A stretch of DNA of 64,000 nucleotides from positions 1,932 through 65,931 of the forward strand of contig JBAZJU010000008.1 of assembly GCA_041651155.1 (NCBI GenBank). Reading direction: 5' to 3'. The position numbers and the translations under genes are program-made. The DNA is from Patescibacteria group bacterium (GTDB lineage Bacteria; Patescibacteriota; Patescibacteriia; CAIXNZ01). This document shows positions 3,813 to 44,513 of this stretch, piece by piece. Under the pieces are notes generated by a model. It searched no databases. It was not told the DNA's origin and saw only the letters and a program-made list of their open reading frames with translations. Position 1 is the first letter of the stretch. Every line of letters begins with the position of its first letter.

Positions 3813-3957
3813 ACAAATAGTTCCCCTGTTTTAATTCCAGATACCTGTCCATTTTACCTTTCTTACCTGTCATCCGACCTGTCTGCCATAGCTTAAGCGG
3901 AGGCAGAAGCTTTAGCGTAGGATGACCCCTTTTACCCTTCTTTCTCTTTTTACTCTT

Positions 3958-5211
3958 TTAAATTAATCCTTTAAGGTATTTTATCAGTTTATCCAGCTTA
4001 ACTATTTCCAGCTTATCAGAATTTCTCGGCTTTATTTCCACGCTTTTAGCTTGCAAAGTTTTTGCGCTTAAAACAAGCCTGAACGGAATACCGATTAAAT
4101 CACTGTCTTTTAATTTAATTCCAGCTGATTCTTCCCTATCATCATATAGCACTTCAAAGCCAGCTTTAACCAGCTCATTATATAACTTGTCCCCATTTTT
4201 TGCAAGTTCCTTTTCTGAACCTAAAGTCAGTAAATGCAGGGCAAAAGGAGCCACTTCTTGGGGCCAAATAATACCCTTATTATCATGATGAATTTCAACT
4301 ATAGTCCCCATAAGTCTGCCCAAACCCATACCATAACAACCCATAGTAATAATAACTTCCTGCCCCTCGCTATTATTTACTTTTAAATCAAAAGGAAGTG
4401 AGTATTTTGTCTTAAGCTTAAAAATATTGCCTGTTTCAATGGCCTTGGCTTCTTTAAAATCTTTAACAGTCAGATTGCAGGTTTCACATTTAGTTATAAC
4501 CTCAATAATTTCTTTATTATAAGCAATTTTACATTTTGGGCAGATATAAATTGTATCTTCACCGGCTGGCGTGACTGTTTGAAATTCATGTGAATATTTT
4601 GAGAATGAAGATCCAGAAGCCAAAGTCAGATATGTTTCTGCTCTAATCCCTGCTCTTTGAAAAATCTTAAAATAAGCATCTTTAGCTTTTTCATAATATT
4701 CATCCAAATCTTTTTCGTCTAAATGGAAAGAATAAAGGTCTTTCATGACAAATTCCCTGCCACGCAAAATGCCGGACTTTGAACGCAATTCCATTCTGAA
4801 TTTATTTTGAAATTGATAAATATAGACCGGTAAATCTTTGTAGGAATTGATGAATTTTTTCATTAATGGCACAACCACTTCTTCATGAGTCGGTCCCAGC
4901 GCAAATTCATGGCCGCTTGAATCTTTAACTTTGTATAAATCATCCATGCTTGACCAACGGCCTGTTTTTTCCCAATTATCTTTAGGATGCAATGAGGGCA
5001 TCACAATTTCCTGGCCGCCAATATTATTCATTTCTTCACGAATAATATTCTCAAGCTTTTTAAAAACTCTTAAGCCCAGTGGCAATAGAGTATAGACGCC
5101 GGCTGCCAATTTATCAATAAAGCCTGCCCTAATTAATAATTGGGCATTAAGGCTTTTTTCCTCCTCCCCTATTTCTTTTTTAGTTTTGGTAAATAAAAAT
5201 GATTGTTTCAT
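3958..5211 (-). CDS. proS: prolyl-tRNA synthetase, short bacterial type without the INS editing domain; carries a CxxC...CxxC insertion
   Basis: 417 aa. Aligns closely to the ProRS N-terminus and class II motifs (LIRAGFIDKLAAGVYTLLPLG, LGPTHEEVVVPL, FRMELRSKSGILRGREFVMKDLYSFH). Contains the insert CPKCK...CETC. Confidence 0.9.
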   Translation of the reverse strand: MKQSFLFTKTKKEIGEEEKSLNAQLLIRAGFIDKLAAGVYTLLPLGLRVFKKLENIIREEMNNIGGQEIVMPSLHPKDNWEKTGRWSSMDDLYKVKDSSGHEFALGPTHEEVVVPLMKKFINSYKDLPVYIYQFQNKFRMELRSKSGILRGREFVMKDLYSFHLDEKDLDEYYEKAKDAYFKIFQRAGIRAETYLTLASGSSFSKYSHEFQTVTPAGEDTIYICPKCKIAYNKEIIEVITKCETCNLTVKDFKEAKAIETGNIFKLKTKYSLPFDLKVNNSEGQEVIITMGCYGMGLGRLMGTIVEIHHDNKGIIWPQEVAPFALHLLTLGSEKELAKNGDKLYNELVKAGFEVLYDDREESAGIKLKDSDLIGIPFRLVLSAKTLQAKSVEIKPRNSDKLEIVKLDKLIKYLKGLI

Positions 5212-5600
5212 ATTTTTATGCTTGGTTTAGATTTATAGCCCATGAAAAATATTTCTAAGATGACAAAGGCCAGAATTAAGAAAAAAATGTTTCTCCAGAT
5301 TAACAAATTAGCGCTTTTTAAAAACAAGCTGATGACTATTAACAAAGAAAACCAAACTGCCTGGCGGAATGAGGTAATAACTTTTCTGAAGATTAAATGC
5401 TCTGAGGTAAAAAATATCCTGGCAATCAGGCCAATTATGGAAAAAATCCCGATTAAAGTCAGCAATAAGCTGAAATAAAACAAAATTAATGCTAACAGAT
5501 TGGCCTTTGTCGGATCAAAAAAATAAACTACTGCTAAAAAAGCAAAAAAGCAGGCAATGGTGCATAAAAGCATTAAAATAATATAAGATCTTAATGTCAT
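5208..5600 (-). CDS. small polytopic membrane protein, function unknown
   Basis: 130 aa, about 4 predicted TM helices. Its stop overlaps the proS start, so it is probably co-transcribed with proS. Confidence 0.45.
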   Translation of the reverse strand: MTLRSYIILMLLCTIACFFAFLAVVYFFDPTKANLLALILFYFSLLLTLIGIFSIIGLIARIFFTSEHLIFRKVITSFRQAVWFSLLIVISLFLKSANLLIWRNIFFLILAFVILEIFFMGYKSKPSIKI

Positions 5601-5610
5601 AATTATGACT

Positions 5611-5696
5611 TAGTATATTAAGTAGGGATACTAATTTACGAATATTATACGAATAATACTAATTGGAACCGTATGAAAATTTGAGAACTATTAGTA
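5611..5696. promoter_or_regulatory. cluster of four ATACTAA/TTAGTAT heptamers including the 24-nt conserved leader motif, upstream of the membrane-protein-proS operon
   Basis: ttagtat (5612), atactaa (5626), atactaa (5654), ttagtat (5690). Read directly from the sequence. Confidence 0.5.
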
Positions 5697-5702
5697 TATT
5701 TT

Positions 5703-5744
5703 GCCTGCCTGCCCTGCCTACCGGCAGGCAGGCGGCAGGCAGGT
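5703..5744. other. GC-rich imperfect palindrome (gcctgcctgccctgcctaccggcaggcaggcggcaggcagg) in an otherwise AT-rich 390-bp intergenic region
   Basis: Read directly from the sequence. GTAG is present in the loop on the minus strand. Confidence 0.5.
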
Positions 5745-5987
5745 ATTGAATTCGTACATTAGTATCCAAATATAGATAATGGCGTTTTACCAAATTTAGG
5801 CAAATACGGCACTAAAACAAAAAAACGCTAAGAACAAGTTAGCTTAATTTTAGCAAATTTATATAAATTTAGCAATTGCCAAAATGGCCCAAGAACATTA
5901 TTTAAATACCTTAATTTTCTTAAATTAACTAAATAAAAAACACCACGCAACGCGTGACGTTTTTGCAATAAAATCAATTTATACAAA

Positions 5988-6413
5988 TTAGCTTTGGCTA
6001 GCTTGCATCTTCTGCACTTTAATCTCCAGATCCGCTAATTGCTTTTTCATAATTTCAATATCGCGATAAGCAGCTGAGATATCCTCGCCTTCAAACGTTT
6101 CTATATTATCTAGCCTTTCTTTAATTTCTTTTAATTCAAGCCTAATATCAGCCAATTCCTGTTTAATTGGAACCAATAGATCTTCAAACGTAGATAGAAC
6201 TCTTATTTCCATTTGTTTTAAGTCTTCTTTAGTCGCAAAACGGTCCAAGTCTTCTTTGGTCGCAAAACGGTCCAAATCTTCTTTGTTAGCAAAACCATCC
6301 AAATCTTCTTTGGTCGCAAAACGGTCCAAATCTTCTTTGTTAGCGGCATTGTCTTTAATAAAAGTTACAATGTCTAATATATCTTTTATATTTTGTTCCT
6401 GGCTATTGTCCAT
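5988..6413 (-). CDS. coiled-coil protein with five tandem 9-aa repeats (ATKEDLDRF)
   Basis: 141 aa. Carries a 27-bp tandem repeat at nucleotide level, with a heptad-rich C-terminal half. Confidence 0.5.
   Translation of the reverse strand: MDNSQEQNIKDILDIVTFIKDNAANKEDLDRFATKEDLDGFANKEDLDRFATKEDLDRFATKEDLKQMEIRVLSTFEDLLVPIKQELADIRLELKEIKERLDNIETFEGEDISAAYRDIEIMKKQLADLEIKVQKMQASQS
6222..6356. repeat. 27-bp tandem repeat, about 5 copies, inside the coiled-coil protein gene
   Basis: Unit t[ca]gcaaaac[gc][ga]tccaa[ag]tcttctttg[gt] is repeated head to tail and encodes KEDLDRFAT repeats. Confidence 0.8.
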
Positions 6414-6512
6414 AAAATTTATTTTTCTTTATACTAACAGTATACGATTTAATTATTTAATAGTCAAAATTGCGCAAATCACTATAAATAATTTGCTATG
6501 TTAAATTAACCG

Positions 6513-6803
6513 CTATATTACCAGCCTGATATCCTTGATAAAATCTGGGCTAAACTTGGCGTTTATTTTCTCAAGGATTTCTGCTTTTCTAAAATTCATT
6601 TCCTGGGCCATCACAGAACTTAAGCAAGCCACTGTCAGGATATTATTTTTAATATATAATGGTTTAATTTTTTTACCAAGATTAGAGCCGAATATTTTAA
6701 TAATAATCTCTTTAAATTCTTCAATTATTAAAGAGGTTTTAACCTGTTGGCTAAAACCTTGCTGAGTAATCCGTTTAGATAAAAATTTACTTATGTGTTC
6801 CAT
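6513..6803 (-). CDS. DUF721/DciA-like small protein
   Basis: 96 aa. The pattern KPLYIKNNILTVACLSSVMAQEMNFRKAEILEKIN resembles the DUF721 family signature (G.L.V.V.SS.WAQEL...IL.KIN). This is a weak, motif-only call. Confidence 0.4.
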   Translation of the reverse strand: MEHISKFLSKRITQQGFSQQVKTSLIIEEFKEIIIKIFGSNLGKKIKPLYIKNNILTVACLSSVMAQEMNFRKAEILEKINAKFSPDFIKDIRLVI

Positions 6804-6905
6804 AAGCTTGCTTGTAAAACAATAGTAATAGATTGTAATACAATTGTCTTACAATTTATTACCATATCTTACAACAATAAAACAAATAAAAAGCCTAAAA
6901 ACGAT

Positions 6906-7115
6906 TTATTTAATATTTGTTTTTAGCTGACCCAGGACTGTATTAATTGCCTGCGCAATTGCTAAATCATCTGCTTTTAATTTTTCAACTTCTTTTTGCA
7001 AAGACATGTTGTTTATAAATAAAAAAACATTGCTCAAAACCAAAGCGCCTAAAATAAAAATTATTAGAACTTGAAGCCAGTCTATTCTATTTCCCTCTTT
7101 ATTAATTAATTTCAT
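6906..7115 (-). CDS. small TM plus coiled-coil protein (FtsB/DivIC-like architecture)
   Basis: 69 aa with one TM followed by a coiled coil (LQKEVEKLKADDLAIAQ). Architecture only. Confidence 0.3.
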   Translation of the reverse strand: MKLINKEGNRIDWLQVLIIFILGALVLSNVFLFINNMSLQKEVEKLKADDLAIAQAINTVLGQLKTNIK

Positions 7116-7162
7116 AATTTTCTAATTAGTAGATTAGTAATAAATTAGCTGATTAGTAACCT

Positions 7163-10100
7163 TTATTTTTCATAGACCACAAAAATCGTTATCACATCCC
7201 CTTCTGTCCAGGTACCGCCCAATTTATCCACTCTGATAGCCGAGCCGTCATATTCAATCCTGTTTTCCGTATTAGTACTCCAAAAATCCTGATCGCCATA
7301 AACATTGCCGCTGACCACATAATGAACGCCATGCAAACTGGCAATTTTGTCTTTTGTGGCTTTTGCCCATGATTCTGAAAAATATGTATTTGTAACATCA
7401 TCGCTGGTTATTGTATGCCTGATTAGATCAGAAGCTAAAAATTCGTTGTCATTTGTCTTTAAATAATTTGAGGCTAAATCTCCTGTTGTTTTTAAACTTT
7501 GATCAAAAATGAATTGCGTATTAGTGGCATCCCAGATTAAATTGCCATAGTTGCTGCCCATATTGCCAAAAGATATCAAATTATAAATAGTATCGCTGCC
7601 TGAAACAGAAGAAGCCGCATTCCAAATTTTTAGAGGGTAAGTTGTGTTATTATTACTGTTAAAAAGTCCGGCAATAATTCCGTCACCGCTAGTATAATTG
7701 TTTAAAACTAATAATGAAGCCAGGCCTGAAATACCGCCTCTGCTGTTTATAACCATCTTATCAGGGTTGTCTGTTGCTCTGGCAATAATGTCTCCTAAAT
7801 TTAAAAGCTGGCTTTTATAAATAACTAGACTGTCCAAAATGCCTTTATAAAAATTACCGGACGAATCTTTGCCAATGTATAAATCAGCCGCATTATCCAG
7901 ACTGCCGGTTACACTGGTAATATTTTGGATGTATGTTAATGAACCATCATAAGCCATAGTGACATTACTGGAACGATCAAAGGCAATTAAAACATGATGC
8001 CACTTGCCATCATTTAAAGCATATCCGCCTGCTACATTTGTGCTATAAGTATTGGTGCCATCTCCGATAAAAAAACCGATTTTATTATTAGAATCAAAAT
8101 AAACTTCATAGCCGGCATCCCCGCTTCTTTTGGAAATAATCCTTTTATTTGTCTGGTCACTTGAATCTGCTTTGAGATAAAATTCCAGAGAAAAATTATC
8201 AGTGCCCATATTTAAATTAGCGCTGTCTGTCAAAGTCAGATAATCTGAAAGTCCGTTAAATCCCAAACCATAGCCATAATATCCTTTTTGCCAGGTTGTG
8301 CCTGTAATCGTAGGATCATCAGCCAGGGTAATATTTGAGGTAGTTGTCCCCTGCCCTTCGGCAAAGGCCAGGCCGACTGCCTTGCTATCATTGCTAAAAT
8401 AAACCGGATCTGCCTTATCTTTTTCATTAGTACTGGCTGGCAAGCCGATTAAACTGCCGACAGGCGAAGAAATATTGCCATCGCTCAAATTATTAGCCAC
8501 ATAAAGATTTTCAAATGCAGAATTAAAATGATTTTTGACTTCTGCAGGCGTTAAAACATCATCATAAATAGCGACACTATCAATTTCACCATCAAGTGAA
8601 GTATTTGGGCTGCCTGCTGAACCAAGATAGAATTTATCAAACCTGCTTATGTCTAAATTTGAATATGCAGTACTTAAGGCAAATTGCCCGTCACCATAAA
8701 AAGATACATTCCCTGAATCCCAGGCAATTACAACATAATGCCAGCTAGTATCCGGGATACTGCCCAGAGGAATCTTTGTGTCTCCTACCTTGAAATACAT
8801 ATCGCTCTGATTTTCTTTGGCAAACACAATTTCATTGGAAGTGCTTTCCGCCAGTCTAAAAGCATAATTATCAGCTGAGGCGGTTATATCATTAAATTTT
8901 ACCCAAAACTCAATTGAACCCTGAGTTGATGATAAGCCGGGATCTGCAAAAGACACTGAATCGCCATCAGCGCCAAATTTCATGCCATAGCCAATATAGC
9001 CTGAATTTGTCCAGTCAGCATTGCCATTGACAGTACCATTGGCATTGCCAGCCAGATCCGTGACAGTGGAACCGACAGAATCAGAAAAATCATAGGCTAA
9101 TTTTTTATTTTCATCACTATAATGCGTGTAATCCTGCGAATTTGCGCGATTTGCTAAATAAGGCATTTGATTCGGCAGATAAGTTTCAGCGCTGAATTTA
9201 ATACGCTGATAAAAATTATCCCAGGCCAGATAGCCCTCGCCTGTATTTTCATCATCGCTAGATTCAAGATAAATTGTGTGGGTTGTAATTTTGTTGCTAT
9301 GGATATTTTGCCTATTGTCATCTGCATATATTCTTTTTATTTCATCCGGGCTTAAAGCTCTATTAAAAACTTTAACTTCATCAAATTGTCCCCTGGCATA
9401 ATTGGCCGCATAATTGCCGATATTAAATGCGCCGGTCAAATTTTCCATGCCAGCATATGATGAGCTGTTGCTTTCATTGACAGTATCATCAACTTCTATT
9501 CCATTAATATATAATTTTATTCCGGCCGATGTTTTTGAACTATCATAAGTCGCAATCACATTAGCCCACTCCCCTTCATAGCTTGTTAAGGCGGTATTAA
9601 ACATTCTACCCAAATAAGTATTGGTCTGGCTTTGATCAATCAGCTGCAGATTAATCTTATCATCAGCATTAATATAAAATTTATATTCGTCATCAGCAGA
9701 ACCTGTGCCTTTGCTGGCAATTATAAAATTAGTGGCTTCATCCATTTTTATCCAGGCTGACAATGTGAAAGCCGAATCATCTGTGCCATTGCCAAAGCTT
9801 AATTTATCATCATCAGCTACTGAAAAATATTGATTAAGACCATCAAGAGTCAAAACATCATTAGCAGCACTGGCGCTGTTTTCCAATGTTCCAGTTAAAC
9901 CATTGGGGCTGCTATCATCTGAATTCCCATTAAAGCCATAATCTGCGACCAAAGAACTATCTATAATTTTTGGCACGCTCAAATTTCCGGTCATTTCACC
10001 GCCTTCAATCTGAACAAAATCTGCAGATCCCTTGCCATTCAATTTGTCAGCATTCATGGCATAAGGCGTAGCTGTAAATCTTTTTCTGGGCAAAAATACT

Positions 10101-10675
10101 TCTTCAAAAGTGCCATTAGCGTCATAATCCAATTCAACTTGCAAATAAAAACTGTCAGTGGAAAATGTTACGCCGCCATTGGAAGCGCAAGTGCCGACCC
10201 AGTTGCCGCACAACGAATTTAATTCAACTGTAAAAATGCCGTCATTCACCTGAACTTTACTGCCGCTTGTGCCTTGATTTGTGCCATCCCAATTTTCCGC
10301 CCAAAGAAGGTTTCCGCTGGTAGCTTGGCTGTATATCCTAAAACGCATATCATAAAGTCCGTCCGGCGGAGGCACTCCGTCGGCATTGGTTATTTTACCC
10401 TGATAGGTCAAAGTATCACGGATGCCTTCAGTCGCAAAAATTGTATTTCTATAAATAAAATAAAGATAGCCTATTATTAAGGCAATCTGCAGGCCGATTA
10501 CAAAAATAATCAAAAATGATTTTAAAGACCTTTTAATACTGCTAAAAAATATCCCTAAAAATTTAGGCCTGTTACCCCCAGCCCTTTTAGCTCCTCCCTG
10601 CGCTATTTTTTTATTTTTCTTTAACATAAGCAAATTAAAAGTTGCCCACGGCTGTAACAGTAACTGTTTGGGCAT
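7163..10675 (-). CDS. giant membrane-anchored surface protein with three LamG-like (concanavalin A-like lectin) domains
   Basis: 1170 aa. N-terminal TM. Three copies of the LamG_3-type motif (GQFDEVKVFNRALSPDEIKRIY, GEIDSVAIYDDVLTPAEVKNHF, GILDSLVIYKSQLLNLGDII), S/T/N/G-rich. The first 14 codons overlap the upstream gene; an alternative start ATG at 10627 (MLKKNKK...) avoids the overlap. Confidence 0.7.
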   Translation of the reverse strand: MPKQLLLQPWATFNLLMLKKNKKIAQGGAKRAGGNRPKFLGIFFSSIKRSLKSFLIIFVIGLQIALIIGYLYFIYRNTIFATEGIRDTLTYQGKITNADGVPPPDGLYDMRFRIYSQATSGNLLWAENWDGTNQGTSGSKVQVNDGIFTVELNSLCGNWVGTCASNGGVTFSTDSFYLQVELDYDANGTFEEVFLPRKRFTATPYAMNADKLNGKGSADFVQIEGGEMTGNLSVPKIIDSSLVADYGFNGNSDDSSPNGLTGTLENSASAANDVLTLDGLNQYFSVADDDKLSFGNGTDDSAFTLSAWIKMDEATNFIIASKGTGSADDEYKFYINADDKINLQLIDQSQTNTYLGRMFNTALTSYEGEWANVIATYDSSKTSAGIKLYINGIEVDDTVNESNSSSYAGMENLTGAFNIGNYAANYARGQFDEVKVFNRALSPDEIKRIYADDNRQNIHSNKITTHTIYLESSDDENTGEGYLAWDNFYQRIKFSAETYLPNQMPYLANRANSQDYTHYSDENKKLAYDFSDSVGSTVTDLAGNANGTVNGNADWTNSGYIGYGMKFGADGDSVSFADPGLSSTQGSIEFWVKFNDITASADNYAFRLAESTSNEIVFAKENQSDMYFKVGDTKIPLGSIPDTSWHYVVIAWDSGNVSFYGDGQFALSTAYSNLDISRFDKFYLGSAGSPNTSLDGEIDSVAIYDDVLTPAEVKNHFNSAFENLYVANNLSDGNISSPVGSLIGLPASTNEKDKADPVYFSNDSKAVGLAFAEGQGTTTSNITLADDPTITGTTWQKGYYGYGLGFNGLSDYLTLTDSANLNMGTDNFSLEFYLKADSSDQTNKRIISKRSGDAGYEVYFDSNNKIGFFIGDGTNTYSTNVAGGYALNDGKWHHVLIAFDRSSNVTMAYDGSLTYIQNITSVTGSLDNAADLYIGKDSSGNFYKGILDSLVIYKSQLLNLGDIIARATDNPDKMVINSRGGISGLASLLVLNNYTSGDGIIAGLFNSNNNTTYPLKIWNAASSVSGSDTIYNLISFGNMGSNYGNLIWDATNTQFIFDQSLKTTGDLASNYLKTNDNEFLASDLIRHTITSDDVTNTYFSESWAKATKDKIASLHGVHYVVSGNVYGDQDFWSTNTENRIEYDGSAIRVDKLGGTWTEGDVITIFVVYEK

Positions 10676-12707
10676 AAGAGCCTGCTTCTGTCGTACCAGT
10701 TATGACAGCGGCATGGCATAAGGTCGTTGAATCAGAACTGATCGGCCCTGTAGCAGAAGCAAATGATTGATCGCTGGTTAATAAAACTGAAGCTGGCATA
10801 GCTGTAGCCAATTGATTGGCTAAATTACTGCAAGCAGAGCCTGAATTATTTTGTGTAATTGTTTCACCGGCCTTTGAAGTTGAAACTCCGTATTCTTCTT
10901 CTGTAGAAACTCCTCCAATATTTGTCACTCCCACATCGCCATCAGCCACATCGCTTATTTGATTGGCGGCATTTCTCAGCATGCCATCTGCTCTAATATA
11001 GGCAGTATAGCCTAAGCTGCCATTGGTGCTAATTTGCGTATCATAATTGCAAGTGCTCAAGCCAGCAGCGCTGAAAGTGCCTAAACTGCAGTTTGCGGCT
11101 GACAATGACAGAGTTAAAGTTGCATCAACTGCGGCTGAGATATCAACTGTATCTTCCTGATCAATTATCCAATGGGTAAAATAAATTTCATTATTGCCGT
11201 CAATGTTATCCTGCCAAATGACATTGGGCAGATTGGTATTTCTTAGCACAATTTCAGGATAATCCGAAAAACTGTTGCCATTATCAGATAAATTATCTGT
11301 GCCTGCTACATCCCCCATTTTGGTCCAGCCAAGGCCTGGAGTCCATTTGCGAAAATATATTTCGTAATTATAAACGCTCACGGCTTCCCGCCAAACAATA
11401 TTCGGAAAGCCCTGAGAGCTAAGTCCTATTTTGGGATATCTTGAAGCAGTTGCCGTGTTTGAGACATTATCATGCCCCAGAGTGCCATCCATTTTTGTCC
11501 AGCCAACACCCCCAGTCCATTTAGTGAAATAAATATCTCTAGTGCCTGTGGTGGCATCATCCCAGACAACGTTGGGTATGTTTGATTGGTCAAGTTTAAA
11601 ATCAATGCTATCGGAATCGCCCAAGGTATTGGAAATATTTTCATAGCCTAAAGTGCCATCCATTTTTGTCCAGCCTGTGCCTGGCTGCCACTTGGTAAAA
11701 AATATCTCCCCATTTGCGCTTGTGACATCTCTCCAGATAATAATAGGAAAGCCTAATGAATCAAGACGCATTTTTGGCAAACCTGATGCAGATGAATTAT
11801 TGGAAACATTATCCGCGCCTGGAGTACCGTCCATTTTGGTCCAGCCAACTCCCTGAGTCCATTTCTTAAAATAAATATCACCATTTCCTGTTAAATCAAC
11901 AGACCAAGTAAGGCAAGGGTTATTTGAGGAATCAATCGCAAATTGTGCTAAATGTGAATTATTGCCGCTATCATTTGAAACATTATCAGTGCCTGGAGTA
12001 CCATCCATTTTGGTCCAGCCAACTCCAAAAGTCCATTTACGGAAATAAATCTGCGTTTTACCATTAACAGGTTCTTCCCAAGCAATATAAGGATTATTAT
12101 CATTATCTATGGCAAATTGAGTTGAGCCAGAATTTAAAGCCGTACCAGAAACATTATCAGTACCAGCCGACCCATCCATTTTTGTCCAGCAATCATCAAT
12201 CCCAGCACCGCAGACACCTGAGCCGGCACCCACTGTCCATTTTCTAAAAAAAATTTCATAATTTCCAGTGGAATTATCCAGCCAGACTAAATAAGGAGTA
12301 CCTGAATCTGTCAGTGAAAATTTTGGCAAAGTTGAGCTGCCAGAATCATTAGAAACGTTTTCTGAACCTTCACTGCCATCCATTTTTGTCCAGCAACCAT
12401 TACCTCCACATCCAGTCGCTGTCCACTTGCTAAAAAAAATATCACTATTTCCAGTAGTACTATCAATCCAAATTGCATATGTATTATTATAAGCATCAGC
12501 CATAATTTGCGGTGCGATGGATGAGCCTGTATTATTGGAAATATTTTCACTAATATCTGTCCTGTCCATATTTTTCCAAGAGGCAAAAACTTCTTTGGTA
12601 AAAATCTGGCTGGTAACAATAATTACAATACCAAAGCAAAAAAGCCCAATTTTTCCTATTTTCCATTGGTTATTTAAATTAAAATACAATGGCTTTCTTT
12701 TAGTCAC
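10635..12707 (-). CDS. secreted repeat protein: about nine ~48-aa propeller-like repeats plus the conserved C-terminal VVGNF-family domain
   Basis: 690 aa with a signal/TM N-terminus. Repeats share IYF(R/T)KWT.G.GWTKMDGT.G.DNVSN; the repeat is also visible as a ~144-bp periodicity in the DNA. The C-terminal ~170 aa is homologous to the C-termini of 12745..13791, 13845..14930 and 16616..17686 and ends AVGNF. Confidence 0.7.
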   Translation of the reverse strand: MTKRKPLYFNLNNQWKIGKIGLFCFGIVIIVTSQIFTKEVFASWKNMDRTDISENISNNTGSSIAPQIMADAYNNTYAIWIDSTTGNSDIFFSKWTATGCGGNGCWTKMDGSEGSENVSNDSGSSTLPKFSLTDSGTPYLVWLDNSTGNYEIFFRKWTVGAGSGVCGAGIDDCWTKMDGSAGTDNVSGTALNSGSTQFAIDNDNNPYIAWEEPVNGKTQIYFRKWTFGVGWTKMDGTPGTDNVSNDSGNNSHLAQFAIDSSNNPCLTWSVDLTGNGDIYFKKWTQGVGWTKMDGTPGADNVSNNSSASGLPKMRLDSLGFPIIIWRDVTSANGEIFFTKWQPGTGWTKMDGTLGYENISNTLGDSDSIDFKLDQSNIPNVVWDDATTGTRDIYFTKWTGGVGWTKMDGTLGHDNVSNTATASRYPKIGLSSQGFPNIVWREAVSVYNYEIYFRKWTPGLGWTKMGDVAGTDNLSDNGNSFSDYPEIVLRNTNLPNVIWQDNIDGNNEIYFTHWIIDQEDTVDISAAVDATLTLSLSAANCSLGTFSAAGLSTCNYDTQISTNGSLGYTAYIRADGMLRNAANQISDVADGDVGVTNIGGVSTEEEYGVSTSKAGETITQNNSGSACSNLANQLATAMPASVLLTSDQSFASATGPISSDSTTLCHAAVITGTTEAGSYAQTVTVTAVGNF

Positions 12708-12744
12708 TAAATTCTTTCAATAAATTATTCTTAAAATTTATACT

Positions 12745-13791
12745 CTAAAAATTACCTACGACTGTAATCGTCACTGTCTGAGCATAAGCGCCTGCCGGGG
12801 TTGTGCCAGTGATCACTGCCGCATGGCATAAGGTAGTTGAATCAGCACTCACGGGCGCTGAAGAAGTGGCAAATGACTGGTCACTTGTTGTTAAAGCTGA
12901 ACCTGGCATGGCAGTTGTCAACTGACCATCCAAAGTTGCACAATCAGAGCCTGAATCATTGTCTACTATCGTAGATGATGCATTTGTTGTAGAAATGCCA
13001 TATTCTTCTTCTGTAGAAACTCCGCCGCTATTGGTTACACCCACGGTCGCATCTGCCACATTGGTTATGCTATTTGTGGCATTTCGCAAATTGCCGTCTG
13101 CTTTAATATACGCTGTATAGCCTGAATCAGCATTGGTGCTTACTTCTGTATCATAACTGCAGGTGCTTAAACCTGTTGTGCTTAATGTGCCTAAAGTGCA
13201 GGTAGAGGTAGATAAGGACAGAGTTAATGTTGGCTCAACTGTAGCCGAGATATTTACCTGGTTTAAGCCAACAACTATGGCTGCGCCGCCGCTATCTTCC
13301 TGGGTATCAGCATTGGTATCGCTGCCGCCCCAGGCATTATCAGCGCCCAAATCCCAGGTTGTAATAGCAAAAGAAGCTGAACCGGCAGTAGGATTGGTGA
13401 TATGGTTATTTGAAATCGTAATAGTAATTTGGCCTGAAACCTGATCGCCTTCTGTTGTAATCGGAATTTGCAAATTTTGTCCACTCACACTGGCTGTCCC
13501 CTTGGTGATATCTGTGGTTGTATGAGTTTGAGTAACTGCCACATCACCGTTAACTACGTTAGAAATGACATAGCCTGCCGGAAAAGTAATTTTAATGCCA
13601 TCCCCGCTATTTATATTGCCGTCAGGATTAAAAATAATCGTGGCATTTGTCGCTGCGCTGGCAGTGTAATTTGATAAAGTAATGCTCACCACGCTTATAC
13701 CGCCGGCTAAGGCTGGCAAAGCAGTAAAAGTGTTTAATACCATCAATAAAACCGCCAGTACAATTGAAAAAAATTTAAAATGTTTGTTCAT
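12745..13791 (-). CDS. secreted surface protein, paralog family (variable N-domain plus conserved C-terminal domain ending VVGNF)
   Basis: 348 aa. Signal peptide MNKHFKFFSIVLAVLLMVLNTFTALPALA. TWDLGADNAWGG motif. The C-terminal ~170 aa is nearly identical to the paralogs, with conserved Cys pairs. Confidence 0.7.
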   Translation of the reverse strand: MNKHFKFFSIVLAVLLMVLNTFTALPALAGGISVVSITLSNYTASAATNATIIFNPDGNINSGDGIKITFPAGYVISNVVNGDVAVTQTHTTTDITKGTASVSGQNLQIPITTEGDQVSGQITITISNNHITNPTAGSASFAITTWDLGADNAWGGSDTNADTQEDSGGAAIVVGLNQVNISATVEPTLTLSLSTSTCTLGTLSTTGLSTCSYDTEVSTNADSGYTAYIKADGNLRNATNSITNVADATVGVTNSGGVSTEEEYGISTTNASSTIVDNDSGSDCATLDGQLTTAMPGSALTTSDQSFATSSAPVSADSTTLCHAAVITGTTPAGAYAQTVTITVVGNF

Positions 13792-13844
13792 AACTTTTTT
13801 TATAAATTAATTTTATTCAATCTTTATTTTAATTATTTATTTTT

Positions 13845-14930
13845 TTAAAAATTTCCGACAACAGTGACAGTCACAACCTGGGCATAAGCGCCTGCAGGTG
13901 TTGTGCCCATAATAACAGCTGCATGGCACAAAGTCGTTGAATCAGCGCTCACTGGACTTGTCGCTGTGGCAAAAGACTGATCGCTGGTTGATAAGGCTGA
14001 ACCGGGCATCGCAGTTGTTAATTGGCCATCTAAAGTTGCGCAATCTGTGCCTGAATCATTTTCCACTATTGTAGAAGATGCATTAGTCGTGGAAATGCCA
14101 TATTCTTCTTCTGTAGAAACTCCGCCGCTATTAGTTACGCCCACGGTCGCATCAGCCACATTGGTTATGCTATTTGTGGCATTTCTCAAATTGCCGTCTG
14201 CTTTAATATAAGCTGTATAGCCTGAATCAGCGTTTGTGCTAACCTCAGTATCATAGCTGCAGGTGCTTAAACCGGTTGTGCTTAATGTACCCAAAGCGCA
14301 GGTCGTGCCTGACAAGGTTAAAGTTAAGGTTGGATCAACTGTGCCTGAAATATTAACCTGGTTTGTGCCAATCACTACCGCTGCATAAGAACTGTCTAAT
14401 ATTGTATCAGCATCAGCTCCAGTTCCCCCCCAAGCCTCATCAGCGCCTAAATCCCAAATTCCAAGTGTAATTTTCTGAGTGCCTGAAGATGAAGGCGTAG
14501 TAATATGGCTGTTGGCAATTGTAATCGTCACTGCTCCGCTGGGCGTATCACTTTCTGTGGTAATGGGAATTGCCAGTACATTTTGGAGGCCAATGCCACC
14601 TACGATTGCTGTTCCTTTAGTGATATCTGTGGCAGTATGCGCCTGAGTTACTGTCACGTCTCCATTGACAACTGGGGCAGTGGAAAGATCAGAATTATCA
14701 AACTGAACCGTTATCCCATCTCCAGTATTAATATTACCGTCTGGATCAAAGCTAACCGTTGTTGTGTTAATAGCTGTATTGACAGCTGAGACATTGTTCC
14801 CGCTGGCATCGTGATAAGTAACAGAAATATCGGCCAAACCGGCATTAGCGTAATTTTGGGCAAGACCACTTCCTCCTAAAATGATTACCATTGCCATAAA
14901 AATGTAAAAAAGCTTCGTTTTCTTAATCAT
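13845..14930 (-). CDS. secreted surface protein, paralog family (conserved C-terminal domain ending VVGNF)
   Basis: 361 aa. Signal peptide. IWDLGADEAWGG motif. The 3' half is near-identical at DNA level to 16616..17686. Confidence 0.7.
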   Translation of the reverse strand: MIKKTKLFYIFMAMVIILGGSGLAQNYANAGLADISVTYHDASGNNVSAVNTAINTTTVSFDPDGNINTGDGITVQFDNSDLSTAPVVNGDVTVTQAHTATDITKGTAIVGGIGLQNVLAIPITTESDTPSGAVTITIANSHITTPSSSGTQKITLGIWDLGADEAWGGTGADADTILDSSYAAVVIGTNQVNISGTVDPTLTLTLSGTTCALGTLSTTGLSTCSYDTEVSTNADSGYTAYIKADGNLRNATNSITNVADATVGVTNSGGVSTEEEYGISTTNASSTIVENDSGTDCATLDGQLTTAMPGSALSTSDQSFATATSPVSADSTTLCHAAVIMGTTPAGAYAQVVTVTVVGNF

Positions 14931-15110
14931 AGATTAATTATTAATTATTTATTAAAATTATTAGATATTTTATTTTATAATCTCATATCTTAGCCAAATT
15001 TTAACTCATCCATATCACAATTATATCATAAATTCAGCCGTAAAAAAAGTTAGCCTGTGAATAAAATTTTAACCTGCTGAAATAAAATTCCGTCATAATG
15101 ATGGCTTATC

Positions 15111-15473
15111 TTAATCTTTTTTATACTTTAATACACGTAAGTACGTATCAACAAATCTTAAAATTATAACCAAGATTAATGCTAAAATTACCATGATTAA
15201 CGCCATCAGCCCCCAACTGGCTGCTTGATCATAAATTGTCTGAACTTCCCCGGTGACTTCTTTTTGTTGCAAACCCAATGATTTTTCAAAAAAATATTGG
15301 TATTTATTTTCTTTGGTCATTACGGACTGGGTTGGCTGAGTGGAAATATTTTTATTTAATTCTGTTTCTGGCACAATGCCGTAAACATTCACATCCGTCT
15401 GCCCATGACTTACGGATAAATAAAAAAAATTTATCAATATTGCCGCTAAACCAATTAAAATAATTTTACGCAT
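15111..15473 (-). CDS. small secreted protein with a C-terminal TM anchor and basic tail
   Basis: 120 aa. Signal peptide MRKIILIGLAAILINFFYLSVSHG. C-terminal TM followed by RFVDTYLRVLKYKKD. Confidence 0.45.
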   Translation of the reverse strand: MRKIILIGLAAILINFFYLSVSHGQTDVNVYGIVPETELNKNISTQPTQSVMTKENKYQYFFEKSLGLQQKEVTGEVQTIYDQAASWGLMALIMVILALILVIILRFVDTYLRVLKYKKD

Positions 15474-15496
15474 ATAATAACTCCCCAGCTTGATAT

Positions 15497-15531
15497 AAGA
15501 AGAGGCTTTTAAGTATTAAAAGCCTCTTCTT
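15497..15531. terminator. 14-bp perfect-stem hairpin (aagaagaggctttt / aaaagcctcttctt) between the DUF916-like gene and the 120-aa gene
   Basis: Read directly from the sequence. T-rich flanks on both sides. Confidence 0.55.
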
Positions 15532-15563
15532 TTCAAAGTCCTTATAAATTGGGATTAATACTT

Positions 15564-16538
15564 TTATTTCTTAGCTTTGCCGTATTTCTTCAAAATCCAT
15601 TTGTTATATTTCTTGATAGCAAAATACAAGATTACAACAATAATGACTATTATTAACAAATTAACAATAATTATATTCCATGGGATTACCATGAATGTAG
15701 TTGAGGCTGTTAAAGTATTGCCTGCTGTGCCATAAGCCAAGCTTAAATCAGCGGTATAACTGCCAAAAGCAAAATTTTCTTTTTCCTGCATATATTTGCC
15801 CCAGAATGTGGTTGCGCCTACTGCATTAGGATCTTTTAACCAGCCAGCATCAAATTTTCTGATTTGGTCAGGCAGGACATTGCCACCTGCTTCATTGACA
15901 GCAACTTTGCCGGCAACAGCTCCCCACATGTTTTTAATCGTAATTGTTCCCATTGGCTTTAAATGGACATTACCGTCATTTTTTACTCTCACGCTAAAAT
16001 CTACTGGCAGTGAACTAAAAGTTTTACCAGCTGTGCTGAATTCTGCAATTTGCGCGCTTTCTTTAATTTCACCTGCAATTCTAACCAAAATCAAAGTGCC
16101 AATACGGCTGGCAATAGATACTTGAGAACCTGCATTGGCAGCTTCCGGAGGCGCAGTGCTCAAAAATATAGCAGCATAATGACCGCCTGGCCCGGCATAA
16201 TTAGGTACGATAATTGAAAAAGGCACTTCCACTGTAGAACCTGCTGGAACAGTGATACTCTGGAATGGAAACTTTATCCAGGTAGCTAAATCCACGTCTT
16301 CACCTGTAAAAGATGGTTCTCCTGCTTCACCGCCTGCCACAAATCGTTCTGCTGATAAGTAATAAGTGGCTGCTGCCGCACCTTCATTACGAACCTTAAT
16401 TGATTGATTTATCACATCGCCTTTCGCAGCGTCAATCTCAATTATAGGCGGTGATACTGTAACAGCAGAACTTGCTAAAGGCAGAAGTAAGCCGACAGCA
16501 AGCAGGGCAATTACCAATGAGAAAATTTTTGTTTTCAT
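15564..16538 (-). CDS. DUF916-like cell-surface protein: signal peptide, beta-rich ectodomain, C-terminal TM anchor with KK-rich tail
   Basis: The ORF track extends to 16559. The likely start is the second Met (MKTKIFSLVIALLAVGLLLPLASSA, a good signal peptide), preceded by GGAGGGTGAGGGG. The C-terminus is IIIVNLLIIVIIVVILYFAIKKYNKWILKKYGKAKK. The architecture matches DUF916/CscA-type proteins of WxL clusters; the assignment is by architecture, not by a strong motif. Confidence 0.55.
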   Translation of the reverse strand: MKTKIFSLVIALLAVGLLLPLASSAVTVSPPIIEIDAAKGDVINQSIKVRNEGAAAATYYLSAERFVAGGEAGEPSFTGEDVDLATWIKFPFQSITVPAGSTVEVPFSIIVPNYAGPGGHYAAIFLSTAPPEAANAGSQVSIASRIGTLILVRIAGEIKESAQIAEFSTAGKTFSSLPVDFSVRVKNDGNVHLKPMGTITIKNMWGAVAGKVAVNEAGGNVLPDQIRKFDAGWLKDPNAVGATTFWGKYMQEKENFAFGSYTADLSLAYGTAGNTLTASTTFMVIPWNIIIVNLLIIVIIVVILYFAIKKYNKWILKKYGKAKK

Positions 16539-16615
16539 ATTTTTCCCCTCACCCTCCATTGCTTAAAGCAGCGGAGGGCAAATTTAATTTTTATAATTTA
16601 TTTTAATTATTTATT

Positions 16616-17686: not shown

Positions 17687-17890
17687 AGTTTAATCTTCAT
17701 TTGTTAATTAAAAAATACTAAAAGATTTAGTATTTAGATATTTTAAATATTTATTTTCCTGACTATTTCTTAAAATAAAATTCAAAGCTAAATCCATTGC
17801 TAAAATTTAGATTAAATAATTATTATATGTTTTTATTATAACATAAAAACATATAACTAACTATGATTTTAACCTGTGGAAAAGTCATGC

Positions 17891-18601: not shown

Positions 18602-18619
18602 GTTTATTTTTAGATTTTT

Positions 18620-35836: not shown

Positions 35837-35928
35837 ATTTTAACTTGTCATGGTGAGCCCTTCGGCTAAGCTCAGGGCAGGCACTGAAAGTTTACAGTGA
35901 GCGTAGTCGAACTGAACCATTACATTAA

Positions 35929-37317: not shown

Positions 37318-37382
37318 TTAAATGATTAAATTGTTAATTGCTAAATTGATATTTGAATTTATTTTGTTTTTTGCCTTCGCAA

Positions 37383-37409
37383 ACCGTAGTCCCGCTGGGC
37401 GGGACGAAG
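37383..37409. repeat. REP-like GC-rich hairpin element, copy 2 (ccGTAGtcccgc-tgg-gcgggacgaagg), in the atpD-atpG spacer
   Basis: Same element in the opposite orientation. The GTAG tetranucleotide lies immediately 5' of the stem. Confidence 0.7.
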
Positions 37410-37431
37410 GTTTGAATTTTAGCATTTGTCA

Positions 37432-42599: not shown

Positions 42600-42794
42600 T
42601 CTAAATAAAAAAAGCTCCTCACGAGTCTTATGTTTTTACCTAAAATAGTTTTCCACAATTTTAGGATTCACTCCTAATTTTATAACAAAAAGAAGAAAAA
42701 ATCAAGCCTCCTGAAAAATTATCCCCACAAATTTGCAAAAAATCTTCGGCTTAAAATTTTAAAAGGCTAATTTTAGCCAAATTATAAGTAATAT

Positions 42795-43670
42795 TTATAG
42801 TTTAAATAAATTGCTTGCGTTCTCAAAGGTGGCCCTTTCAACTTCTTCAAACGTCATTTGTTTTAAATCAGCAATTTTCTGCACAACATATTGCACATAA
42901 GAAGGTTCATTTCTCTGTCCGCGATAAGGCTCTGGCGCCAAAAATGGCGCGTCTGTTTCCACTAAAATTTTATCTAAGGCAATCTCACTAGCTATCTGCT
43001 GTAATTCTTTGGCATTTTTAAAAGTCACAATGCCAGTAAACCCAATATAAAATCCTAAATCAATAAATTTTAAAGCCTGATCTAATGTCCCGCCAAAACA
43101 ATGAACAACTCCCCTTTTCCCGTCTGAACGCCAATCGCCAAGTACCAATTCCAAAACTTCCAGCATTGTATTATAAGCGCCATAAGGATCTTTTTCCTCG
43201 CCTCGGCAATGCAAAATTAATGGCAAGTCAGTTTCTTTGGCTAAATTAATAAATTCGCGAAAAATATTTATCTGCATTTCTTTAACTTCAGTGAGCGGAT
43301 GTTTAGAATCTGCTAAACGGAAAAAATCCAAACCAGTTTCACCCAAGCCCACTACCCTATCGCTTGATTTGGCTAATTCCAAATATTTATTATAATTAAA
43401 TTTTTCTCTGGGAGTAAAAAAAACAGTTTCTTTGCCATCAAATTCAGATCTTTCTTCTATATCTTTAATTAAGTGGATTGGATGCACACCAACAGCAGCC
43501 CAAACCCCCAAGCCAAATTTATTCGCAATTTCTACTGCTTTTTGGCTAGATTCATAATTAGAACCAACATTAATCAGCCAGGTTTTATTATCTAAAGAAC
43601 GCTGAATTACCTCATTTAATTCAGCGTCGTATTCTTTAAAATTTATATGCGCGTGCGAATCAATAAGCAT
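42795..43670 (-). CDS. tatD: TatD-family metal-dependent DNase/hydrolase
   Basis: 291 aa. MLIDSHAHIN start. TatD motifs: HCRG, GETGLD, VETDAPFL. Confidence 0.8.
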   Translation of the reverse strand: MLIDSHAHINFKEYDAELNEVIQRSLDNKTWLINVGSNYESSQKAVEIANKFGLGVWAAVGVHPIHLIKDIEERSEFDGKETVFFTPREKFNYNKYLELAKSSDRVVGLGETGLDFFRLADSKHPLTEVKEMQINIFREFINLAKETDLPLILHCRGEEKDPYGAYNTMLEVLELVLGDWRSDGKRGVVHCFGGTLDQALKFIDLGFYIGFTGIVTFKNAKELQQIASEIALDKILVETDAPFLAPEPYRGQRNEPSYVQYVVQKIADLKQMTFEEVERATFENASNLFKL

Positions 43671-43673
43671 AGG

Positions 43674-43754
43674 CTACAGATTACGGATAAATACAAATTT
43701 ACAGATAAATATAACTTTATAATTCGTATATCTGTACAAATCTGTAATCTGTAG
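43674..43754. mobile_element. 81-bp MITE-like element, second copy (TIR ctacagattacggat ... atctgtaatctgtag, 14/15 match), between tatD and cvpA
   Basis: Read directly from the sequence. Terminal repeats are shared with the element at 40926-41004. Confidence 0.65.
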
Positions 43755-43756
43755 AA

Positions 43757-44266
43757 TTAAATTACAGAATGAATCTGCCTTAATAATTCTGGCAGCATCA
43801 GCTGGAGGATCTTTGAGGTTGTAATAAACCAAGGCGCGACTGTGGAAGCTTCCAAAACAGAAGTAAACCAATCTGACAAAGGGAATCGAGCTATGATAAA
43901 TAAAGATAGGCCAATAACTAAGACCCCTTCAAAAAACCCCAAAATACCGCCGAACAAGCGATTTATTGTTTTTAAAAAAGGGATTATTGTCAAAAAATTA
44001 AAAATTTTATTCAGCACATAAAAAGCAAAACCGATTAAGCGATTTAAAATAATAAAAATGAAAATAAAAGCAAAAATACGCATCAAATTCGGATGGCCAA
44101 AAATTGATTCCAACCAGCTGCCCAATGGTTCAAACCACAGTCCGGCGAAAAAAGCCCCGGCAAATGTGCCGATAATCGCGCCTAGAGTATGAATTAACCC
44201 AAACCATAAGCCAAACATCACAAATCCACCCAAGAGTATTAACAAAACAACATCAAATATTGTCAT
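43757..44266 (-). CDS. cvpA: CvpA-family membrane protein
   Basis: 169 aa, 4 TM. CvpA-like pattern. Confidence 0.6.
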   Translation of the reverse strand: MTIFDVVLLILLGGFVMFGLWFGLIHTLGAIIGTFAGAFFAGLWFEPLGSWLESIFGHPNLMRIFAFIFIFIILNRLIGFAFYVLNKIFNFLTIIPFLKTINRLFGGILGFFEGVLVIGLSLFIIARFPLSDWFTSVLEASTVAPWFITTSKILQLMLPELLRQIHSVI

Positions 44267-44513
44267 AAAATTGAGTTATTAAATGATTTTATATTTATAG
44301 TCTGCAGCTCTGCTTTGCAGAACAGAGGACTACTCGTAGTCCGAAGCTTTAGCGAAGGACTACATCCACTCCTTCATGAACCAATAAAGCAAGACCAAAA
44401 CCAAAACAATCAAAAAATAAATATAAAATGGGACGTGCACCATATTTTTTTATTAAAAAATTGCTTTAATAAGCTGTTTTTATTATACCTCAATTCATTT
44501 TTTAAATAAAGTC

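Follow-up and report, generated by a model that had tools for sequence, protein, structure and literature searches.

A self-nesting 30-nucleotide hairpin unit with REP-like features between and within the genes of a Patescibacteria group bacterium

The window analysed here, a 64-kb stretch of contig JBAZJU010000008.1 from a Patescibacteria group bacterium, carries almost all of its genes on the minus strand, and its plus strand is C-rich throughout. The genome of this ultra-small bacterium is Parcubacteria/Buchananbacteria-like, the relatives found through methionyl-tRNA synthetase all belonging to that group. Between and within these genes lie at least 12 copies, at eight loci, of a 30-nucleotide (nt) hairpin-forming unit that is the subject of this study (Table 1). 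The units were sought by pattern scan, with a covariance model (CM), by reading of the sequence and by DNA folding. Loci and contigs from relatives, viruses and metagenomes carry L-numbers and proteins carry P-numbers, P0121 being the window's own protein.

Table 1. Copies of the 30-nt unit in the window, and the Y1 transposase homolog encoded there
Feature	Position	Strand	Basis
Two nested 30-nt units	3866-3925	+	Sequence, excision, CM 38.8 bits, DNA fold
Single unit CCTG CCCGCC GTAGCTTTAGCGAA GGTGGG	22356-22385	+	CM 43.6 bits, DNA fold
Y1 (IS200-like) tyrosine transposase homolog, 224 aa	28498-29172	-	Pfam PF01797, E = 3e-8, 34 bits, above cut-off
Degenerate copy, atpD-atpC spacer	35857-35883	-	Read from sequence; below CM reporting threshold
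Long-apex variant, atpG-atpD spacer	37376-37414	+	CM 16.1 bits, DNA fold z = -4.2
Unit 44333-44362, CTCG TAGTCC GAAGCTTTAGCGAA GGACTA, with upstream arm copy	44327-44363	+	CM 39.4 bits, DNA fold
Four-level nest inside open reading frame (ORF) 59760-62204 (VirD4-like CxxC-x17-CxxC protein)	59994-60113	+	Serial excision, translation
Unit AATA TCCTCC GAAGCCTTGGCGAA GGAGGA in ORF 59760-62204	60600-60629	+	CM 34.9 bits, DNA fold
Diverged unit CCTG TCTGCC CCGGCCTTAGCAAA GGCAGA in ORF 62208-63995	62262-62291	+	CM 12.7 bits, DNA fold

The nested pair occupies a spacer downstream of a class II aminoacyl-tRNA synthetase gene (stop 3958) and upstream of mreB (start 3778), both assigned by Pfam. The unit at 22356-22385 lies 10 nt beyond the stop codon of a UvrD/PD-(D/E)XK helicase gene, with ATTCGC repeats on both sides, and its stem is extended to 9 bp (22357-22365 with 22380-22388). 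The stop codon of a conserved 27-aa ORF (44360-44443, minus strand) falls in the 3' arm of the unit at 44333-44362, which is preceded by a 6-nt direct copy of that same arm (GGACTA, 44327-44332). At four of the window loci the hairpin stands shortly past stop codons in co-directional operons. Within coding sequence, the unit at 60600-60629 directly follows a zinc finger and encodes SSFAKASEDI, and that at 62262-62291 encodes SSAFAKAGAD and shares its tag and arms with the unit at 3878-3907. The degenerate minus-strand copy reads GCC CTG CCC TGA GC TTA GC CGAA GGGC.

The motif at the centre of the unit had been described in an earlier note as recurring in hairpin loops with different stems. Its recurrence is real and greatly exceeds chance: the structural pattern CCNNAGCNNNNGCGNNGG occurs five times in the window, all on the plus strand, against 0.01 expected, and AGCTTTAGCGAAGG with up to two mismatches gives six matches against 0.46 expected (none of 100 shuffles reached six). 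The stems around it do differ, the arms of each copy being complementary to one another. The three-segment arrangement reported at the third site is also present, and comprises GGACTAC (44327-44333), TC, GTAGTCC (44336-44342), the core (44343-44356) and GGACTAC (44357-44363). Of the four motif positions given previously, that of the second site (22366-22381) is right, but the other three are displaced by 5-8 bases: the first site lies at 3906-3921, not 3912-3927, and the third at 44343-44358, not 44335-44350. The supposed variant at 27207 actually lies at 27199-27217, has no flanking stem and is not reported by the CM, so that it is not a member of the family. Nor does the 7-mer GCTTTAG/CTAAAGC define a shared core, since it occurs at chance frequency in the window (15 observed, 13.1 expected). 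The hairpins at 25464, 46318 and 48160, which the note tied to the motif, do not belong with it: they score at most 15 bits with the CM, and they prove to be either unremarkable stems capped by TTTA/TAAA tetraloops or an inverted repeat of 19 bp. Copies that had been missed are those at 3878-3907, 60600-60629 and 62262-62291, the nest at 59994-60113, the variant at 37376-37414 and the minus-strand copy at 35857-35883. The sites are dispersed, as claimed, but not solely intergenic, five of the window loci being intergenic and three intragenic.

Each unit opens with an unpaired tag of 4 nt (CTTG/CCTG-like) at its 5' end. A 6-nt arm that closes with CC follows, then the 14-nt core, and then the complementary arm, of which GG are the first bases; the motif is this 14-nt centre, RWA-GC-TTTA-GC-GDM. 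Every copy has a stem of at least 6 bp that closes with CC/GG around 14 nt, RWAGCYTWRGCGDM. Within the core, RWA lies opposite GDM in a 3x3 internal loop, predicted to be of the tandem sheared G.A kind, followed by a GC/GC mini-stem and a TTTA loop, and DNA folding gives this succession of stem, internal loop and mini-stem for all copies. The earlier description of a conserved core with covarying stems stands, except that the 14 nt are not an open loop. The mini-stem of the unit at 60600-60629 shows a compensatory change from T-A to C-G, and the apex as a whole can be replaced by a stem of 5-7 bp while the CC/GG closure and the internal loop are retained. The variant at 37376-37414 (CAAACC-GTA-G TCCCGC TGG GCGGGA C-GAA-GGTTTG), for example, has a 7-bp apex stem but keeps the closure and a GTA/GAA loop; its apex, TCCCGC..GCGGGA, is also found in L322 (11572-11616).

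Position-wise information confines conservation to positions -8 to +22, with the consensus C-T-T-G / YCCKCC / core / GGMGGR. Among 229 copies the tag is CTTG in 42 and CCTG in 24 (29% exact) and variable in the remainder, and GTAG is found in 97 as the RWAG tetranucleotide, positioned within the hairpin and not at its end. In the same 229 copies, core positions 2 and 15 are coupled, with G2 accompanying A15 in 165 and A2 accompanying C15 in 38, against 26 exceptions. Covariation in the stem is evident in two samples. In 60 selected sequences there are 72 double-change cells compared with 21 in shuffles, none of 500 shuffles reaching 72. The other sample is of 107 unselected viral copies, in which Watson-Crick pairs make up 67-81% at the four variable positions of the stem, compared with ∼20-28% just outside it. 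Among the stem cells that are not Watson-Crick, G.T exceeds A.C (54 to 27, p = 0.004), indicating that the motif strand folds as a single strand.

The unit inserts into itself. Excision of the inner unit at the first site (3878-3907, 30 nt; CCTG TCTGCC ATAGCTTAAGCGGA GGCAGA) rejoins GA|AGCTTTAGCGTA, giving a canonical core between TCATCC and GGATGA with a CCTG tag of its own. In the DNA fold the stem of this outer unit (3866-3877 + 3908-3925; CCTG TCATCC GA|AGCTTTAGCGTA GGATGA) encloses the inner hairpin. The nest at 59994-60113 has four levels (60048-60077; 60030-60047 + 60078-60089; 60012-60029 + 60090-60101; 59994-60011 + 60102-60113), and stepwise removal of 30 nt restores a canonical unit four times, with five or six of six stem pairs at each step and with each restored unit having its own tag and its own matched arms. 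All insertions in this nest are at offset 18|12, in the apical loop and just before AGCG or GGCG. Its 120 nt begin at a codon boundary in ORF 59760-62204 and supply 40 in-frame codons, PSFASTSATSYASADAKAMADKKATEVRKAMVDKKAREDM. Separate nests of 30-31 nt are seen in L108 (two), L172, L220, L213 and L292, and self-insertion takes place at two fixed offsets, 12|18 and 18|12, immediately 5' of AGC or GGC. Were local replication slippage alone the origin of the nests, inner and outer arms would be expected to be identical, and they are not.

Statistics on the boundaries and flanks of 171-172 copies agree with a discrete element. AGC stands exactly 3' of the unit in 21 of 172 copies (12%), against 0-3 at any other offset (∼1% background); this enrichment fixes the 3' boundary and suggests that AGC is a target preference of the unit. 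In 14 of 171 members (8%), including that at 44327-44363, the six nucleotides immediately 5' of the tag repeat the 3' arm, against ∼1 at other offsets. No target duplication was seen at the nested insertions of the first site, of 59994-60113 or of the other loci, and the direct repeats of 13-15 nt at the first and second sites, which were considered as target-site duplications, are explained by nesting and by local ATTCGC repeats. ATTCGC(N2-3) repeats flank a CCTGCCCGCC-type unit at two non-syntenic sites, 22333-22398 of the window and 2730-2810 of L322, and may form a longer composite repeat that travels with this subfamily.

The unit is open in four of its six frames, and copies inside ORFs occupy only those four stop-free frames. 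Wherever a copy lies in a gene, it is open and its length is divisible by 3. Because 30 nt amount to 10 codons and four frames are open, the unit can persist in frame and add decapeptides such as SSFAKASEDK; the commonest in-gene frame encodes x-[FYSAD]-A-K-A-[TSML]-x-[DG]-K. Its hosts include isoleucyl-tRNA synthetase (IleRS), ThyA, SufS, PCMT and the VirD4-like protein, and in the first four in-frame copies are found in both orientations. The IleRS of L227 contains two copies that face opposite ways. When the top 60 Patescibacteria orthologs of IleRS were aligned, 57 lacked the 47-aa insert, and a second loop proved to be a hot spot with intact and decayed units. In ThyA of L225 and L294 a unit occupies the same site, and its core is intact while the flanks diverge. 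We considered whether the peptide motif S-[FY]-A-K-A-[ST] might be a repeat at the protein level, but the same nucleotides occur in four frames, in both orientations and in non-coding DNA, and third-codon positions are invariant even at 70% GC.

Comparisons with relatives reveal turnover of the unit. Where the window has its four-level nest, the VirD4-like ortholog P0122 has a single unit (PSFAKATADR). The unit that follows the zinc finger is present in P0125 and P0126 and reduced to a decayed 10-residue remnant in P0122, P0127 and P0128; in the L322 ortholog the TCCTCC/GGAGGA arms and GTA/GAA loop are shared, and the apex is 9 nt longer, in frame. The tails of the VirD4-like orthologs differ by unit-bearing insertions. 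The syntenic relative L324 has no unit after the helicase gene and none in the atpG-atpD spacer, and its atpD-atpC spacer holds an intact long-apex unit where the window has the degenerate minus-strand copy. L322 carries a 240-nt insert with a degenerate unit at a site where the window has none. L002, the methionyl-tRNA synthetase (MetRS) of which is 81% identical, retains the small ORF upstream of cvpA but lacks the hairpin of 44327-44363. The CM finds five strong copies in the 64-kb window, compared with seven (≥19 bits) in 1.31 Mb of MetRS-anchored loci from relatives; the unit has expanded in the lineage of the window.

Two features of these loci deserve mention in their own right. ORFs 59760-63995 encode a VirD4/TrwB-like coupling protein with a treble-clef zinc finger beside a DUF8128-like membrane protein, a pair that is conserved in relatives and adjoins a sigma-70-like gene; it is chiefly the Lys/Glu-rich tails of the two proteins that take up in-frame units. 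The small ORF between metG and cvpA (44360-44443, minus strand; L002 11568-11666) is unannotated and encodes a conserved hydrophobic peptide of 27-32 aa ending in YWF[MI]KEW[ML].

Beyond the window, pattern scans of viral contigs and of metagenome contigs gave at least 120 stretches each and place the unit in more than 240 viral and metagenome contigs of 29-71% GC, "giant-virus MAG" contigs among them. Among the metagenome matches listed, 122 of 127 have at least four of six stem pairs, over the same span of 29% to 71% GC. Cultured collections gave no true match in 50,697 phage records or 72,556 plasmids, and full-text searches of the literature yielded no description of the sequence or of its peptides. 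Orientation relative to flanking genes is random among 76 viral copies (21 same, 20 opposite, 35 mixed), and with respect to GC skew no significant bias was found over 138 loci (66 positive, 72 negative), with a trend toward the C-rich strand (37 to 22) when |skew| exceeds 0.05. In low-GC viral contigs 25 of 35 copies (∼70%) are intergenic and the rest lie inside real ORFs. All-against-all clustering of ORFs near 240 units gave only phage structural or housekeeping genes and no other recurrent neighbour.

Several identities were considered for the family and set aside. A sequencing adapter or assembly artefact is contradicted by compensated arm variation and by in-frame copies in orthologous genes, and a CRISPR-like solitary repeat by the lack of arrays or spacers, the tandem copies in L109 being 28 nt apart. 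Hammerhead, twister, pistol, K-turn, sarcin-ricin, tetraloop-receptor and SRP motifs do not fit on by-eye comparison. Rfam 15 has no match to the window at the gathering threshold, and permissive scans of L109 and L204 (E up to 10) gave chance-level matches only.

Larger repeats contain the unit at two other loci. In L204, inverted repeats of 106 nt (1222-1327 and 3055-3160, 88% complementary) bracket gatC-gatA, each with the hairpin unit inside a larger three-way-junction fold (z = -6.2) of GTCATYCTGAGG/CCTCAGRATGAC arms, and the pair looks like a composite element of the miniature inverted-repeat transposable element (MITE) kind. The metagenome contig L307 has a ∼1 kb array (1200-2280) of four hairpin units, TTCGAAGTTCGRCG tandem repeats and a CCCCGAAATAATCGGGATG hairpin.

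Other hairpins in the window are separate from the family. A perfect 19-bp inverted repeat at 25445-25514, TTTGAGGCTAAGCCTTGAA ... TTCAAGGCTTAGCCTCAAA with a 32-nt spacer, lies at a gene-strand switch between the start of the helicase gene and a small block of plus-strand ORFs, and could be an operator or bidirectional signal. The ∼100 nt at 48130-48230, between ORFs 47160-48086 and 48262-48924, can be folded as a three-way junction in which an outer stem GGGCGAAAACGC/GCGTTTTCGCCC surrounds GGCGAC-TTTA-GTCGCC and CCGCCAC-TAAA-GTGGCGG; this region has no Rfam match (best E = 0.07, chance). GCCTGCC/GGCAGGC repeats form a hairpin of 77% GC at 5702-5736, within an AT-rich spacer; it is terminator-like and unrelated to the 30-nt family.

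The window encodes a candidate enzyme for movement of the unit, the Y1 transposase homolog of Table 1. Its best NCBIfam match is the REP-associated tyrosine transposase (RAYT) model NF047646, at 60.8 bits (cut-off 80), compared with 26.3 bits for the IS200 model, and its HUH motif reads H-V-N, where a homolog such as P0274 has H-F-H. Homologs in Patescibacteria relatives, labelled RayT by JGI, are single-copy and syntenic. Loci picked solely through such homologs contain three units in 82 kb, and together with L322 and the window 11 units in 169 kb. Only one of four RAYT-homolog loci, L326, has a unit at the 3' end of the gene, a variant. Our literature search found no link of RAYT or REPIN to Patescibacteria.

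Some further hairpins are associated with this gene. The L326 unit (10548-10599) coincides with the divergent C-terminus of P0262; it and a unit in L324 (4829-4880) are long-apex forms in which the inner stem GTTGGC/GCCAAC repeats the outer arm CCAACC/GGTTGG, making alternative pairings possible. Within the RAYT-like ORF itself (28823-28858, minus strand) lies a perfect 36-bp palindrome, CCCCGTAGGCCACACAATATTGTGTGGCCTACGGGG, that is in frame (NPVGHTILCGLRG). Homologs read VG[DEH]T..[CF]RLRG at its variable position, which suggests a conserved GTAG...CTAC hairpin inside the transposase gene.

Taken together, these observations make it probable, in our judgement, that a mobile hairpin of 30 nt, self-nesting and frame-neutral, has the motif as its core, acts as DNA and is closest in kind to the repetitive extragenic palindromic (REP) elements. 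Such a unit would move as folded single-stranded DNA, targeting unpaired loop positions; its cleavage and joining would be the work of an HUH/Y1 enzyme of the IS200/RAYT type acting in trans. The unit is possibly mobilised by the RAYT-like Y1 transposase at 28498-29172. Intergenic copies downstream of genes may secondarily serve as mRNA 3' hairpins, as proposed for REPs. The earlier note had favoured recognition by a protein or RNA partner over simple termination. The copies are indeed not terminators: they lack U-tracts, six or more of the units are within ORFs, and the viral sample shows no preferred orientation with respect to genes. The unit behaves as a DNA repeat instead of an RNA site. 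Conservation of an identical 14 nt across contigs of 29-71% GC nevertheless fits recognition by a conserved trans-acting factor, and such a partner is plausible; because the unit behaves as a mobile REP-like DNA repeat, the partner is more likely a DNA transposase or nuclease than an RNA-binding regulator.

A number of observations weigh against this explanation. No transposition event or enzyme was observed, and the terminal tag is only moderately conserved (29% CTTG/CCTG). As for the candidate enzyme, it scores below the NCBIfam cut-off and has H-V-N in place of HUH, no unit lies within 6 kb of its gene, and no RAYT-like ORF was found in ∼1.7 Mb of unit-bearing viral and metagenome loci; the enrichment of units in RAYT-bearing genomes is confounded by phylogeny. 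The arms of the window copies differ and are fully compensated, which simple copy-paste from one master does not explain. The unit after the zinc finger is old, being maintained in some orthologs with its apex swapped in frame, and this maintenance, with the ThyA core kept amid diverging flanks in L225 and L294, points to selection on the sequence and not only selfish spread. Differing but matched arms, upstream arm copies and constancy of the core across GC contents keep alternatives based on a selected function and on templated synthesis alive.

The first of these, which we consider unlikely, is a functional structured RNA motif under selection, such as an mRNA 3'-end stabiliser, a processing site or a site for an RNA-binding protein, with the internal loop as the recognition surface. 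Stems that covary around an invariant core, an interchangeable apex below which the CC/GG closure and a GNA/GNA-type loop are retained, the one-stranded excess of G.T, the four window loci just downstream of stop codons in co-directional operons and the conservation of the core in orthologous ThyA genes would all be consistent with such a role. Orientation argues otherwise, however: it is random with respect to flanking genes, the purine-rich folding strand in the window is antisense to every host gene, and the IleRS of L227 holds both orientations. Self-nesting and exact 30-nt modularity are unexpected for a regulatory site, and neither an Rfam match, even on permissive searching, nor a U-tract is found.

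Units might instead be made in place by templated repair or replication (fold-back or template-switch), a new complementary arm being copied from local sequence each time. This would account for window arms that all differ yet pair at five or six of six positions, and for the copy of the 3' arm 5' of the tag (14 of 171 copies against ∼1 elsewhere; 44327-44363), which gives the order X-tag-X'-core-X expected of a snap-back intermediate; CTTG could itself be a tetraloop. The upstream arm copy is absent from 92% of copies, however, nested insertions occur without it, and the invariant 14-nt core would still require a templating source. We know of no enzyme that generates such units by fold-back or template-switch, and we regard this origin as quite improbable.

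A sequence recognised as DNA in trans and spread by selection (an uptake-type, recombination, replication-priming or packaging signal) seems very unlikely, although the unit is short, conserved and dispersed in both orientations, is tolerated in particular reading frames inside genes, is common to cellular and viral contigs, and lies on the C-rich strand at seven of seven independent window loci. DNA uptake sequences are likewise dispersed and tolerated in certain reading frames. Nevertheless, a density of ∼1 per 5-10 kb in the window and ∼1 per 190 kb in relatives is too sparse and uneven for an uptake-type or Chi-type sequence, a recognition word needs no hairpin with covarying arms and no self-nesting, and no significant GC-skew bias extends over the 138 loci. 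That the copies are ordinary Rho-independent terminators, or chance inverted repeats sharing a loop, is hardly credible, for although several directly follow stop codons, there is no T-run past the stem, the loops are of 14 nt, at least six units lie in ORFs, and five matches against 0.01 expected are joined by an identical core in more than 240 unrelated contigs.

Returning to the mobile REP-like hairpin, we advance a broader proposal tentatively, and with rather more doubt than conviction. The unit might exemplify a minimal class of mobile DNA, a 30-nt tagged hairpin that integrates as folded single-stranded DNA into specific loop sites, including its own apex, to give "Russian-doll" nests. 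Spread over Patescibacteria and their phages with an intact 14-nt core, it would be a frame-neutral generator of decapeptide modules that lengthens and remodels protein tails and surface loops, four successive insertions having supplied 40 residues of the VirD4-like protein. It would be driven by a conserved enzyme, of host or phage, that recognises the GNA/GNA internal loop.

If our explanation is correct, few DNA units for which sequence evidence shows insertion as a discrete entity are as small as this one, which abounds in a vast, uncultured section of the bacterial tree and in the viruses of that section. The unit would serve as a natural system for learning how single REP-like hairpins move, a question unsettled for REPs themselves (singlets or REPIN doublets), and as an example of a selfish repeat made harmless in coding DNA by its 30-nt length, four open frames and Ala/Ser/Lys-rich decapeptides, which would drive the evolution of protein tails in genome-reduced symbionts. 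It would also explain the recurrent SFAKA(S/T)xDK, AVALAKA and RRSFSEGG peptides and the spurious small ORFs of Patescibacteria annotations. Its CM can be used for masking or tracking, and exact nests give the relative timing of insertions for strain-level studies.

Comparison with known systems begins with the intrinsic terminators, which the unit resembles in placing a hairpin just past the stop codon at four window loci. It differs in its lack of a U-tract, its "loop" of 14 nt where terminators have 3-8 nt, its intra-ORF copies, its random orientation and the presence of its core in hundreds of unrelated contigs, and a terminator scan of positions 1-20000 of the window listed no copy of it. 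Mobile GC-cluster hairpins in yeast mitochondrial genes ("byps"), reportedly described by Lang and co-workers in 2014, are likewise short (∼30-50 nt) hairpin-forming inserts within protein-coding genes. The ribosome, however, skips over byps, which often disrupt the reading frame, whereas copies of the unit are open and a multiple of 3 nt, so that translation by read-through is the simpler reading for them.

The subterminal hairpins of IS200/IS605 elements and their MITE derivatives, the palindrome-associated transposable elements (PATEs), are recognised as folded single-stranded DNA by the Y1 HUH transposase TnpA. Like them, the unit is a hairpin whose imperfections are conserved and at the foot of which stands a short conserved sequence, and its genome has a Y1-family gene. 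Insertion beside a short specific sequence (AGC) without target duplication, as in the nested copies, may be a further likeness, although 8% of the family have the 6-nt arm repeat upstream. It is, however, a single hairpin (-8 to +22) with no separate left and right ends around a cargo, and no tnpA/tnpB pair is nearby. The IS608 hairpin, CCCCTAGCTTTTAGCTATGGGG, may have TAGCTTT..AGC in common with the core.

REPs provide the closest parallel. In the GTAG-3 REPs of the E. coli type a stem is followed by non-complementary trinucleotides and a GC-flanked loop of 2-4 nt, variants with longer inner stems exist, most copies are downstream of co-directional ORFs and occasional ones are intragenic, and the terminal tetranucleotide of REPs, GTAG or CGTC, is more than 90% conserved in most families (Di Nocera et al. 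2013; PMC3733652). The unit is similarly an imperfect palindrome of 20-40 bp with an unpaired terminal tetranucleotide, a stem of 6-9 bp with complementary variants, non-complementary trinucleotides between the stem and a short GC-flanked loop, and some longer inner stems; its copies, which seem to lie mostly downstream of co-directional ORFs and are in part intragenic, occur as singletons, tandems and inverted pairs, and a RAYT-like Y1 gene, single-copy and syntenic, accompanies them. In place of GTAG or CGTC, the defining tags of REPs, the unit carries at its terminus a CYTG-like tag that is weakly conserved, and an RWAG tetranucleotide, often GTAG, lies inside the hairpin instead. REP families are as a rule confined to one genus or order, but the 14-nt core is constant in contigs from 29% to 71% GC, viral ones included. 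The unit also has a fixed length of 30 nt, inserts into its own loop and frequently sits in frame within genes; the RAYT-like gene, for its part, has no flanking units and carries H-V-N in the place of HUH.

The Rickettsia palindromic elements (RPEs), said to have been described by Ogata and co-workers in 2000 as selfish palindromic DNA lying in frame in protein-coding genes, match the behaviour of the unit in coding sequence. Both are palindromic repeats found between genes and in frame in housekeeping genes of reduced-genome bacteria, with their peptides in tolerant loops. RPEs are ∼100-150 bp long and limited to Rickettsia, however, whereas the unit measures 30 nt, nests in itself and occurs in many Patescibacteria-like and viral contigs, and there is no sequence similarity between the two. 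We conclude that the unit works like a REP and, in coding DNA, like an RPE, and we assign it to neither family.

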